The notes: generated by a model from the sequence alone, not told the origin. A DNA stretch of 61,095 nucleotides from Candidatus Pacearchaeota archaeon (GCA_038894195.1 JAWAPZ010000003.1:1-61095), one strand, 5' to 3'; shown: positions 3,257-12,289, counted from the first letter of the stretch. Numbers and translations are program-made.

Positions 3257-3378
3257 CGCCGGGACTGGGACTCGAACCCAGATATCCTTACGGAAACAGG
3301 TTTTTCATTTTTCTTCCAGAGGCTTCCTTTTAAGAAGGCTCTTAGCAAACCTGCGCCTTACCATTGGGCCATCCCGGC
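3257..3378 (-). tRNA. tRNA-Ser(GCU) with 40-nt intron at 37/38 (3303-3342)
   Basis: GCCGGGA/UCCCGGC acceptor, CAGGU/ACCUG anticodon stem, UUGCUA|A loop, long variable arm, G73; relaxed BHB (3 of 4 central pairs). Confidence 0.92.
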
Positions 3379-9086: not shown

Positions 9087-10274
9087 TCAAAAACTTAAAA
9101 ATTTAATTTTTTCACTTGTTGCTTGAAAATTCTTTGCAGCAACATACTTGCATGAAAGTTGCTCGGCAATATTAAGAATACCCTGTGTCAAAGTCCCATC
9201 AATAGCAAGAGCCTCTATTGTTCTATTGCTTCTTTTTAAAGAATACAAAAATCTAACAACATCCGAAGCTGATTTCTTTATAATTTTAAAACCTTGTTCT
9301 GTCCTTAAGACAATTGCACATGCTTTTGTTCCTTTAACCTCTTTAATAACCCTCTCAAAATCAATCTCAGGCAAACCAGTATGCTCCTTACTTGCATCTC
9401 GAACCTCATATTTTTTATTCTCTTGTTCTTGCTTCTTTCTTCCCTTTTTGAAAAAAGTTTTTTTAAAATCTTCTACTTTCTGTGCATTTCTCAAACAAGT
9501 TAGAATTTCCTTTTCTGTTAATTCTTCAACTTCTTTGCCATCTGGCGCACGGGCGATTGCACTGACATTAAGGTTATCCAAAGCATCTTTAACAATAAGC
9601 AACCCTCCACGATCGCCATCAACAAAAAGAGTTATCTTCTTGCCAGTCAGCTCTTTCAATGTTCTAGGAATAACAGCCCCGTTCATGGCAATAACATTCT
9701 TAATTCCAGCTTTCAATAAATTAAGAACATCTGCGCGGCCCTCCACAACAATTATTTCCTCGCTTGAATCAATATCCGGACCTGCTGGCAACCTGTCTTC
9801 ACCATACTCTACAATCTTAGAAATTTTTGCATGGCTTGAAATTTCATTTTCCATCTCTCTCGTTTCTGGCAGGGTAGATGAAAGTTTTTCAAGTAATACT
9901 TTTGCCCTTTCAACTATATACTGTCTTTTACTTGTTCTAACATCCTCTACTTTGACTATTTCAAATTTAGCATCACAAGGGCCAACCCTGTCTATAGTCT
10001 CGATAGCAGCTGCAATAATTGTAGTTTCTGTTTTATCTATACTAGTAGGAATTTCAACATCTCCGTAAGTCTTAGAATCTTCAACATGCAAGTTAGCTTC
10101 TATTCTCCCTATTTTTCCTTTTTTCTGCAACTCCCGAAGTTCAAGATCCTCACCAAGCAATCCTTCTGTCTGTCCAAAGATAGCCCCAATTAAGTCTGGT
10201 TTTTCTACAACACCCTCTGCAGTAAATTTTGCTTTTATTATGTATTTTATTGAAGGTGGACTAACTTTTCCCAT
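9087..10274 (-). CDS. dnaG: Archaeal DnaG (TOPRIM primase-like / exosome-associated)
   Basis: GVVEKPDLIGAIFGQTEGLLG, VVEGRADV, DGDRGG, APDGKEVEEL. Confidence 0.96.
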   Translation of the reverse strand: MGKVSPPSIKYIIKAKFTAEGVVEKPDLIGAIFGQTEGLLGEDLELRELQKKGKIGRIEANLHVEDSKTYGDVEIPTSIDKTETTIIAAAIETIDRVGPCDAKFEIVKVEDVRTSKRQYIVERAKVLLEKLSSTLPETREMENEISSHAKISKIVEYGEDRLPAGPDIDSSEEIIVVEGRADVLNLLKAGIKNVIAMNGAVIPRTLKELTGKKITLFVDGDRGGLLIVKDALDNLNVSAIARAPDGKEVEELTEKEILTCLRNAQKVEDFKKTFFKKGRKKQEQENKKYEVRDASKEHTGLPEIDFERVIKEVKGTKACAIVLRTEQGFKIIKKSASDVVRFLYSLKRSNRTIEALAIDGTLTQGILNIAEQLSCKYVAAKNFQATSEKIKFLSF

Positions 10275-10487: not shown

Positions 10488-10673
10488 TTATCCAAAGAGA
10501 CCCTTTCTCTTTTTCTTCTTTTTTTTCTTGCCGAGCTTGCCAGCTTTTGCTAATTTTATTAGTTTGGCAACCTTAGATTTTTTGCTTTTCTTACTCGGCC
10601 CTCTTGACTTATTGAATTTTTTTCTTGCTTTCTTTTTAAACTTTTTTTTAACCTTCTTTTTCTTTTTTGCCAT
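10488..10673 (-). CDS. Lys-rich basic microprotein
   Basis: 61 aa, 31 Lys, no acidic residues; GAGGT SD upstream. Confidence 0.65.
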   Translation of the reverse strand: MAKKKKKVKKKFKKKARKKFNKSRGPSKKSKKSKVAKLIKLAKAGKLGKKKKKKKRKGLFG

Positions 10674-10724
10674 CTTCCAATTAAAACCTCAACTCCTCCA
10701 GTATACTGTTCCTCTTTTAAAATA

Positions 10725-10956
10725 AAAGCTGACATCTGGACTCGGTGAAGGAAGTGCCTTGAACAACCGCTGAATCAAACTTAACCTATCAGCTTGCTCT
10801 AAAGGTTATCTCCTTCGCCCCATAACTAAGCTTAACAGGTGCAGGTTTCATTTGGCGAGTTATAGTCCAGTCGCCAAATTACTAGCTGAAACACCTGGCA
10901 GAGGCTGTTATGGTAGCATCCTTTCCAGGACAACCGAAATGTCCTTTGTCAGCTTT
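10725..10956 (-). ncRNA. Unclassified structured RNA (~232 nt)
   Basis: 10-bp terminal helix, several internal helices, AGUA/GAA motif, 7-bp pseudoknot; TTTATATA box about 20 nt upstream; no ORF. Confidence 0.7.
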
Positions 10957-11011
10957 GATAAACTAATTTAATTGTATATAAAAAACTATCTAATTACTAA
11001 AAAGTAAGAAC

Positions 11012-12289
11012 TTATAAGACAAGTCTCTCGTTAAACTCACCACTGAAATTTTCGAGCATCAATTTTTTGACTTTATCAGAATTTCTCCTAACTTGCTGCC
11101 CAAGCAACCATCCTAACTTAACGAAAGCTGTTTCAGCAAGCATATCTTTCAAAAATAAAACACCCTCTTTTTCTAATTTTCTTGCAGGAGTATAAACATA
11201 AGGGTTGACTCTTCCTGAAATAGTTTGGCTAGTTATTCCAATAATAATATTTTTAGAAATTGCTTTTTTGATTGCAGGAAGCCAGGAATTCTTACCCTTA
11301 ACACAAATTTGTCCCATACCAAAAGCTTCAATAATAATTCCCTTATATTTTCTTTTGATTAAATCATTCAAAATTTCTGTATTTGCCCCTGGAAAAAATT
11401 TTACTAGTGCAGTTTTTTCATTAAAAAAAGCTAGAGCCTTCACTTTACCTAAATTTCTTTTTCTATACTTATGATTTAGAATCTCAATTTTTCCATCAGG
11501 AAAAATCCTTGCAATTGGAACATCATTCACTGCTTTAAAAGCTGCCCGTTCTGAAGAGTGCATCTTTCTTACTTTAGTTCCTCTTAAAGCTAAACAACTT
11601 AGGTCATTAGTATTTTCATGACCAACAATCATTACTTCAGCAACATCACTCAAAGCCATGTAACACGCACATTTCAAATTGAGGTGCGCATCGCTAGAAC
11701 CCCTGTCGATGCTTCTCTGGCTATAAGTTAAAACAACCGGTTTGTTTAAATTGTGTAACATAAATGCTAAAGCACTTGAAGTGTAATGTAGGGTGTCTGT
11801 CCCGTGTAGAATAACAACTCCTTTAATATCTTTCCTATTAAGTATTTTGGCAACCAGTCTTGCAAGTTTTTTCCATTCTCTGCTCGAAATCTGTGAGCTA
11901 TCGATACTGTAAGGAACTTGTATCTCAAATTGCACAACATTTTTTAGTTCAGGATAACTTTCAAGCAAATCCTGGGGCTTTCCAACAGCCAAAACACCAC
12001 CGGTTGCATAATCAACTTTGCTCGCGATGGTGCCACCTGTCGCGATGATTACTATCTTCGGTAATTTTTTGTCTTGTTCAACTACTCTTTCTCGTTTTTC
12101 TTTTTTAACATCACAAATCTTTTCCAGATTCAAAATATCTTTTTTATTAAATCCAACATTATAACCATTATTCAACTTTACAAGAATAATTTTGGGGTCA
12201 TAACTTTCAAGAGCGATTCCTTCAAGTTCCTGATCTTTTGTCCTTATCCTGATTTTTGAACCTATCTCTACATGAAATTTCATAAACAA
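11012..12289 (-). CDS. gatD: Glutamyl-tRNA(Gln) amidotransferase subunit D
   Basis: N-terminal SH3-like domain (KLNNGYNVG), GGTIAS, HGTDT, SQRS asparaginase motifs. Confidence 0.95.
   Translation of the reverse strand: MFMKFHVEIGSKIRIRTKDQELEGIALESYDPKIILVKLNNGYNVGFNKKDILNLEKICDVKKEKRERVVEQDKKLPKIVIIATGGTIASKVDYATGGVLAVGKPQDLLESYPELKNVVQFEIQVPYSIDSSQISSREWKKLARLVAKILNRKDIKGVVILHGTDTLHYTSSALAFMLHNLNKPVVLTYSQRSIDRGSSDAHLNLKCACYMALSDVAEVMIVGHENTNDLSCLALRGTKVRKMHSSERAAFKAVNDVPIARIFPDGKIEILNHKYRKRNLGKVKALAFFNEKTALVKFFPGANTEILNDLIKRKYKGIIIEAFGMGQICVKGKNSWLPAIKKAISKNIIIGITSQTISGRVNPYVYTPARKLEKEGVLFLKDMLAETAFVKLGWLLGQQVRRNSDKVKKLMLENFSGEFNERLVL

Follow-up and report, generated by a model that had tools for sequence, protein, structure and literature searches.

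A conserved double-pseudoknot RNA coupled to a lysine-rich microprotein gene in DPANN archaea

The stretch of DNA analysed here, referred to as the window, comprises 61,095 nucleotides (nt) of Candidatus Pacearchaeota archaeon (GCA_038894195.1, JAWAPZ010000003.1:1-61095). It contains a structured RNA that occupies exactly positions 10725-10956 of the minus strand (232 nt) and, directly 3' of it, an unannotated gene for a lysine-rich microprotein of 61 amino acids (10488-10673, minus strand). An earlier note, made from the sequence alone, had described the RNA as an unclassified structured element; its coordinates and strand are borne out by folding energy, covariation and G-U pairs, and the coupling to the downstream gene had been overlooked. 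The minimum free energy of the RNA is -86.8 kcal/mol, compared with -62.6 ± 4.8 kcal/mol for dinucleotide shuffles (z = -5.07), and none of 200 shuffles was as stable as the native sequence. The abundance of G-U pairs identifies the minus strand as the RNA strand. With a G+C content of 45.7%, the element forms a GC island relative to its flanks (29-31%) and to the genome (33%). The host genome is represented by a bin of 535 kb that is 70% complete, and the genome bins of the sample are incomplete in general.

Searches against Rfam 15 did not assign the RNA to a described family. At gathering thresholds two tRNAs were the sole matches in the whole window, and with permissive filters (cmscan, all 4227 families, E ≤ 10) the region 10600-11100 gave nothing meaningful, a lone match to a long non-coding RNA lying on the other strand. 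No relevant family was found for 18 diverse homologues at E ≤ 1. At E ≤ 10 the model of archaeal RNase P RNA (RF00373) had no match on 10600-11100, and those of archaeal signal recognition particle (SRP) RNA (RF01857) and 5S rRNA (RF00001) had none at the locus. The models of the lysine (RF00168) and c-di-AMP/ydaO (RF00379) riboswitches likewise returned nothing at the locus at E ≤ 10 and nothing in the 18 homologues at E ≤ 1. This agrees with the earlier note, which had seen neither RNase P and SRP signatures nor the full cores of these two riboswitches. Its suggestion of a very divergent RNase P or SRP RNA is refuted, as both RNAs are encoded elsewhere in the genome. The RNase P RNA was located at C1:192044-192404 (82.1 bits, E 7.6e-24, full model), the SRP RNA at C1:115091-115354 (105.1 bits, above the gathering score) and the 5S rRNA at C7:7291-7404 (65.9 bits), so the RNA described here is none of these. 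The score of the RNase P RNA sits just below the Rfam gathering score of 84, and standard annotation would miss this full-model match. Full-text searches of the literature returned no description of the RNA family. With no Rfam match and numerous covarying homologues, the proposal of a new class of non-coding RNA holds.

BLASTN searches in 60 relatives identified approximately 25 full-length homologues of the RNA with 72-88% identity, some genomes carrying two copies, and RNAalifold analysis of 25 sequences predicted 62 pairs, of which 40 show compensatory changes. A covariance model (R1) was built without pseudoknots and used to collect an alignment (A2) of 50 sequences from several families of the class. 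The nested part of this alignment was fitted to the model; the pseudoknots and an extension of helix P9 were absent from it and thus serve as independent tests of the fold. Mutual information on A2 recovered the nested helices as well as pseudoknot 1, pseudoknot 2 and the P9 extension. The final structure consists of 76 pairs in 14 helices, with 95.1% of cells paired versus 31-42% when the partners are slid by 1-3 columns, and 57 of the 76 pairs have changes on both sides. Not one of 500 shuffles reached any of the structure measures on A2, in controls that ignore phylogeny. The RNA of the window scores 264.6 bits against the covariance model.

From 5' to 3', the RNA is composed of a closing helix (P1), a joining segment (J1/2) and a four-way junction of P2, P3, P4 and P9 with almost no unpaired residues, to which two pseudoknots are added (all positions below are on the minus strand). 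Many unpaired nucleotides at junctions and in loops are invariant. P1 is formed by AAAGCUGACA (10947-10956) and UGUCAGCUUU (10725-10734), the terminal helix of the earlier note, and compensatory changes occur in all 8 of its pairs. It is an optional part of the family, being present in about 61% of members and absent from about 39%. J1/2 (AAGGACAUU, 10938-10946) includes a GGAC that can pair with a 3' GUCC. P2 joins UCGGU (10933-10937) to ACCGA (10742-10746); it is 99.6% paired and shows a GC to AU exchange in 5 sequences. The P3 hairpin (GUCC-UGGAAA-GGAU, 10918-10931) carries a GNRA tetraloop (GGAA or GAAA) closed by a U-A pair.

The long arm P4-P5-P6-P8 (10817-10917) was identified by RNAalifold and covariation. 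Within it, P6 is formed by CCAGGUG paired with CACCUGU, and P8 by UUUGGCGA and UCGCCAAA (10871-10878 with 10851-10858), six of the eight pairs covarying; the latter (8-9 bp) is the stem of 9 bp that had been noticed previously. One half of the P8 loop, UAUAAC (10859-10864), is invariant. The second arm, P9-P10-P11 (10747-10816), possesses a conserved internal loop (GAUAA/CA), and the P9 extension (columns 160-162/237-239) is 96% paired and covarying. Conservation across the family is lacking for three further helices proposed in the earlier note and for its loop E. The bases of its GGACA/UGUCC hairpin belong to J1/2, P2 and P3, while the CCAGGUG that overlaps its CCUGG/CCAGG helix is part of P6. 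For its CCUGUUAAGCUU/AAGCUGAUAGG helix, the loop UAGG was found to pair with another, upstream CCUG instead, as pseudoknot 2. A loop E of AGUA and GAA had also been suggested; the G of this AGUA is peculiar to the present genome, the family consensus being AUUAAU/ACGAAA.

A conserved sequence of P9/P10, GAGAU(A/C)ACCUUU (10800-10812), resembles the 3' end of the 16S rRNA of the same genome (GGAUCACCUCCU, C1, approximately 11090-11125). Its partner strand contains GAGG/AAGG, and the helix looks like an internal duplex of Shine-Dalgarno and anti-Shine-Dalgarno sequences, maybe by chance. Mimicry of the 16S 3' end was not relied on, as it rests on a short match recognised only a posteriori.

Pseudoknot 1 connects CUGGAC (10865-10870), in the 5' half of the P8 loop, with GUCCAG (10736-10741), located between P2 and P1; a pairing of this loop with the 3' end had been recognised in the earlier note. 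It is 98% paired in the 50 sequences, with UA/CG/AU and AU/GC exchanges. Among 114 RNAs, complementarity is complete (6/6) in 96 and 5/6 in 18, through 13 coordinated sequence combinations. Pseudoknot 2 connects CCUG (10842-10845), just 3' of P8, with UAGG (10785-10788) in the conserved P11 loop (AUAGGUUAAG). Three of its pairs covary, the pairing reaches 90.5%, and mutual information links columns 129-194 (UA 45, CG 4). A helix of 3 bp, CAG/CUG (P7 of the RNAalifold prediction, 83.9% paired), competes with pseudoknot 2 and was rejected, as it loses to the pseudoknot in discriminating sequences.

A second competition concerns the GGAC of J1/2, which is complementary to the same 3' GUCC that is used by pseudoknot 1 (85.6% paired). 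When the 3' strand changes between U and C, the third base of this GGAC changes with it, column 23 covarying with column 246 (AU 37, GC 6). The GGRN of J1/2 is conserved in 89 of 119 RNAs, many of which have no P1. As the P8 loop and the 5' GGAC both covary with the same 3' strand, these competing pairings indicate that two states are open to the RNA, a nested rod and a compact double pseudoknot. The two states can be read as a regulated switch or as steps of a folding pathway. No conserved link of the alternative pairings to a terminator, a Shine-Dalgarno element or an AUG was found.

A TATA box (UUUUUAUAUA), also seen in the earlier note, is located at 10975-10984 of the minus strand and precedes the first base of P1 by about 25 nt. 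TATA-like hexamers in 130 homologues peak at a similar spacing, approximately 28 nt before this base. The RNA has its own predicted TATA promoter, which would drive transcription from P1 onward. At the other end, an oligo-U tract (UUUUAUUUU, 10719-10727, minus strand) directly follows the last paired base of P1. It is likely to be an archaeal termination or attenuation signal, and it possibly also serves as a TATA-like element for the open reading frame (ORF) that follows.

This ORF (10488-10673, minus strand; MAKKKKKVKKKF...SRGPSKKSKKSKVAKLIKLAK...) encodes a protein that begins with MAKKKKKVKKKFKKKARKKFNKSRGPSKKSKKSKVAKLIKLAK... Homologous ORFs encode 36-75 amino acids, with GRxPSKKSKxSKVKKLIKLAK as their common motif. 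The lysine-rich ORF is truly coding, as shown by a turnover of synonymous codons (Leu TTA/CTN, Ser AGY/TCN, Arg AGR/CGN, Val GTN). The microprotein had no significant match in Pfam or NCBIfam at E ≤ 10 (best weak matches E 0.12-5.3), and a set of 36 microproteins matched no PADLOC, Pfam or NCBIfam model, searches of PADLOC and PHROGs with microproteins giving single chance matches only. A profile search of PDB and a search of 5.8 billion predicted proteins both returned zero matches.

Histone-fold (PF00808) matches are absent or weak in much of the order to which the window belongs and absent in its genome, while 80% of the class is positive; some of the weak matches carry an in-frame stop. 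Within this order, the histone-fold match is missing from 15 of 20 protein-positive and 18 of 41 other genomes. A role of the microprotein as a histone replacement was rejected as a lineage effect, since about 36 of 43 RNA-positive genomes class-wide have histones, which equals the background of 80%.

A genome search and a contig pattern scan gathered 130 distinct full-length RNAs, with ORFs called by hmmsearch at E < 1e-3. The lysine-rich motif ORF lies downstream of 117 of these copies. The other 13 comprise three divergent RNAs with a Cys-type ORF, two copies at contig ends and about eight that stand alone. The median distance from the 3' strand of pseudoknot 1 to the start codon is 31 nt, and for RNAs lacking P1 the start codon is often found 4-20 nt from the pseudoknot. 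Thirty-two RNA-ORF spacers are shorter than 20 nt, contain no T-run and have no room for a promoter. As the sole positionally conserved promoter lies upstream of the RNA, this layout suggests that RNA and ORF usually form one transcript. Runs of four or more T occur in 31 of the 117 spacers, including that of the window, and also after most of the stand-alone RNAs.

Variations on this arrangement were also observed. The three divergent RNAs (L092, G375:C2; L093, G397:C46; L072, G048:C44) score 52-93 bits, and the microproteins encoded after them belong to another family, which has four Cys (MVCPKLxxGDC...C...KxC) and a tail rich in lysine. This suggests that the RNA is linked to polycationic microproteins in general. 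Two 'b-type' copies (L034, G023:C14; L035, G022:C90) possess a conserved element of about 55 nt (GAUUUUGGUG...GUUGCAAAAUC...AGCUUAA) between the RNA and the microprotein start, and the long spacers of L097, L104 and L170 contain strong hairpins.

The RNA family was detected by the covariance model in 23 of 61 relatives. All 20 microprotein-positive genomes among these 61 have the RNA directly upstream, in matching copy numbers. A wider sample covered 401 genomes of the phylum; of the 40 that encode the protein, 39 also encode the RNA, and the remaining one has a start-less remnant of the ORF. Four apparent exceptions were traced to two contig-end truncations, one of which keeps the last 17 nt of the RNA, and to a start-less ORF remnant on a segment of 950 nt that is 97% identical between two genera. 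With these cases resolved, the protein is not found without the RNA save for one degenerate case, and the RNA can persist without the protein. The shared segment of about 950 nt (L214, G335:C64; L217, G190:C68:12300-14000) may represent a mobile element or have been transferred recently; ahead of its ORF remnant lie about 300 nt that are GC-rich, appear to be structured and have no Rfam match.

Genomes carry one to four copies of the RNA. Two of them, G224 and G302, encode a complete RNA-RNA-ORF tandem behind one promoter with a single microprotein gene (L073 = G224:C9, L074 = G302:C48), and the second RNA copy of the G224 tandem lacks P1. In the sample of 401 genomes, the family is present in 49, all belonging to the class of the window and spread over 40 of 281 genera. 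One motif of 21 nt alone matched at least 119 species-representative records. These are mostly labelled as Nano-, Woese- or Pacearchaeota or Nanoarchaeia, with some labels of Micr-, Iain- and Aenigmarchaeota and a few of other lineages, which are regarded as unreliable bin labels. As far as sampled, the RNA family is restricted to small-genome DPANN archaea of the GTDB class of the window. Viral contigs of IMG/VR gave no match to it.

Upstream of the RNA locus lies gatD (11012-12289), with Asparaginase/GatD_N domains (PF00710, PF17763, PF18195), and downstream lies a gene with a Toprim domain (DnaG-like, 9087-10274). Synteny around the RNA is not conserved: the genes on either side vary among the 54 and 47 other loci compared, and the largest flanking-gene cluster comprises 5 of 54 loci. 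This lack of conserved neighbours indicates that the pair of RNA and microprotein is a self-contained module. A guide (omega) RNA of TnpB or IscB was rejected on the identity of the adjoining genes, and a multi-intron tRNA or rRNA fragment was rejected as there is no tRNA or rRNA model match and the whole length is conserved, unlike introns. Elsewhere in the window, a tRNA gene (3257-3378, minus strand, 45.9 bits) carries 42 additional nt in the region of the anticodon arm and a further insertion in the variable region; it is of the intron-containing type typical of DPANN.

Compared across genomes, these sequences define an RNA fold that is new, under strong constraint and equipped with a putative promoter of its own, and that is coupled physically and evolutionarily to a polycationic microprotein. 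The interpretation that we tentatively favour, with somewhat less than even confidence, is that RNA and microprotein gene form one functional unit, the RNA binding the protein encoded behind it as a feedback device and/or as a ribonucleoprotein. The folded RNA would be the specific binding partner of the polycationic protein. Protein binding would shift the RNA towards the compact double-pseudoknot state and away from the nested one, where the 3' GUCC is taken by the 5' GGAC instead of the P8 loop. With the fold positioned a few to a few dozen nt from the start codon, this could feed back on synthesis of the protein. Alternatively or additionally, RNA and protein may assemble into a stoichiometric (1:1) particle. 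In the present genome, the oligo-U tract after P1 would release a free RNA of 232 nt, and read-through would yield the mRNA.

The closest parallels to such a unit are autoregulatory leaders to which the small basic RNA-binding protein that they encode binds, such as the bacterial ribosomal-protein leaders of S15, L20 and L1. These are also structured, partly pseudoknotted 5' leaders of genes for small, very basic proteins, with a fold that abuts the start codon and a self-contained module. Here too a structured leader RNA appears, from the layout, to be co-transcribed with its gene, with spacers as short as 4-20 nt. The present RNA differs in being much larger (about 230 nt, 14 helices and two pseudoknots) and conserved across a whole class, and in having an orphan microprotein as partner. 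It also has stand-alone copies, mimicry of rRNA could not be shown, and binding is only predicted here.

Several observations weigh against this proposal. The route from fold to translation is a conjecture: no conserved pairing was seen to mask the start codon, and only 35 of the 117 spacers contain a Shine-Dalgarno-like element. Known autoregulatory leaders are far smaller and less conserved than this RNA, and comparison by eye only revealed no clear covariation between RNA and protein subtypes. Furthermore, the RNA does not occur only with its gene. The approximately eight stand-alone RNAs are conserved at 120-218 bits and are followed by T-runs and unrelated genes. In two genomes of one genus (G034 and G039), a well-conserved RNA (218 and 173 bits) precedes a T5 run and genes unrelated to the microprotein, which neither genome shows; none at all is seen in genus g22. 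Conservation of these stand-alone copies implies that the RNA must also have a role independent of the downstream ORF.

A further possibility, to which we give a modest chance, is that the RNA is the RNA subunit of a new DPANN ribonucleoprotein that acts in trans, be it as a ribozyme or as a particle with a structural or regulatory task. This particle would be accessory and lineage-specific, with the microprotein as cofactor. In a variant covered by the same estimate, the fold would depend on Mg2+ and polycations and act as a sensor; if so, the RNA would set the supply of a protein polycation and constitute a counter-ion homeostat. The narrower form of this idea, a catalytic or scaffolding RNA subunit acting in trans, with the microprotein as its dedicated basic cofactor and co-transcription as a mere operon arrangement, appears doubtful. 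The complex fold is conserved in a ribozyme-like manner, the RNA has its own predicted promoter, an oligo-T tract precedes the ORF in the 31 of 117 cases that include the window, stand-alone RNA genes persist without an ORF at the scores given above, and the protein, apart from the degenerate exception, is not found without the RNA. Its patchy distribution (23 of 61 relatives, 49 of 401 genomes of the phylum sample), its one to four copies and its tandems are, on the other hand, unusual for a housekeeping ribonucleoprotein. The start codon mostly lies within about 30 nt of the fold, a processing signal is not evident, and no substrate or activity can be named.

Among known systems, one that comes close to a trans-acting particle of this kind is bacterial RNase P RNA with RnpA, taken together with archaeal RNase P RNA (RF00373). 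It shares with the present RNA a large conserved structure with long-range pseudoknot helices and a closing P1, and a small polycationic partner protein that does not occur without the RNA. The two are not homologous, as there is no RF00373, RF00010 or RF00011 match, and the genome encodes a separate RNase P RNA. The present RNA is patchy and multi-copy, its protein gene lies directly downstream and is apparently co-transcribed, and catalysis is not known for it. In kind, an RNA with a dedicated basic cofactor can also be likened to tmRNA and SmpB.

A riboswitch that senses a metabolite or ion (for example Mg2+, polyamines, another counter-ion or a metabolite), with the double-pseudoknot core as aptamer and the lysine-rich protein controlled in cis, is considered unlikely. 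The arrangement has the form expected of a conserved aptamer in a 5' leader, with 117 of 130 copies, or 90%, directly upstream of one gene family. Invariant unpaired nucleotides at junctions and loops, two strands that each have mutually exclusive pairings with covariation, and the RNA-RNA-ORF tandems of G224 and G302, which recall tandem riboswitches, can all be read in the same way. Comparable features are found in the cobalamin, lysine, c-di-AMP/ydaO and SAM-I riboswitches, where a multi-helix junction with invariant nucleotides is closed by long-range loop contacts; the large riboswitches also share the 5' leader position, the alternative pairings and, in the glycine type, occasional tandems. 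The present RNA departs from them in having no sequence or structure match to these classes, in essentially controlling a single gene family without metabolic meaning, and in that no expression platform could be recognised. Stand-alone copies with terminators have no downstream target, and the microprotein is not found without the RNA, whereas genes controlled by riboswitches usually occur without the switch in other genomes. Riboswitches are moreover rare in archaea.

We regard as improbable a type III-like toxin-antitoxin or buffering module, in which the free polycation would be harmful and excess RNA from partial termination would sequester the microprotein. It would account for the asymmetric pattern in which orphan RNAs exist and the protein, with one degenerate exception, is not found without the RNA. 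It would also fit the order of RNA, T-run and ORF in a quarter of the loci, the tandem RNA copies and the patchy, multi-copy, context-free occurrence of the module. ToxIN, CptIN and TenpIN resemble it in their succession of RNA gene, (partial) terminator and protein gene, in their pseudoknotted RNA, in a protein that is not found without its RNA next to RNAs that occur as orphans, and in their patchy, multi-copy distribution. Their RNAs, in contrast, are tandem repeats of 34-36 nt, while the present RNA is one large fold of 230 nt, not an array of short, processed direct repeats, and two full tandem copies occur in two genomes only. The lysine-rich peptide of 40-75 amino acids is no endoribonuclease like known type III toxins, none of the 36 microproteins being of the ToxN, AbiEii or CptN type, and no PADLOC, PHROGs, Pfam or NCBIfam model was matched. 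No viral-contig match and no link to phages, mobile elements or defence islands was seen, and sequence conservation across the class is unlike that of fast-evolving toxin-antitoxin systems.

The least probable explanation, a divergent RNase P, SRP or 5S RNA, rRNA fragment, intron-containing tRNA, transposon guide RNA or known riboswitch, is already refuted and has a negligible chance: the resemblances are superficial only (a closing helix that starts like Escherichia coli M1 RNA, a GGAAAG motif and a UAA/GAA internal loop), and set against them are the RNase P, SRP and 5S RNAs elsewhere in the genome, the lack of any Rfam match including the models for large and small subunit rRNA, lysine and ydaO even at E ≤ 10, and the adjoining gatD and Toprim genes in place of tnpB or iscB.

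To our knowledge, very few structured regulatory or catalytic RNAs beyond the universal ones have been characterised in archaea, and almost none in DPANN, which make up about half of archaeal diversity. In its complexity and in its support from covariation, the fold described here is on a par with a large riboswitch or small ribozyme; it occurs in well over a hundred species-level genomes and is absent from Rfam and from the papers searched, and its partner microprotein has been overlooked entirely by gene callers. Any of the mechanisms proposed, if true, would be the first of its type for these organisms, be it an autoregulated ribonucleoprotein, a new archaeal riboswitch class or an RNA-buffered polycation.

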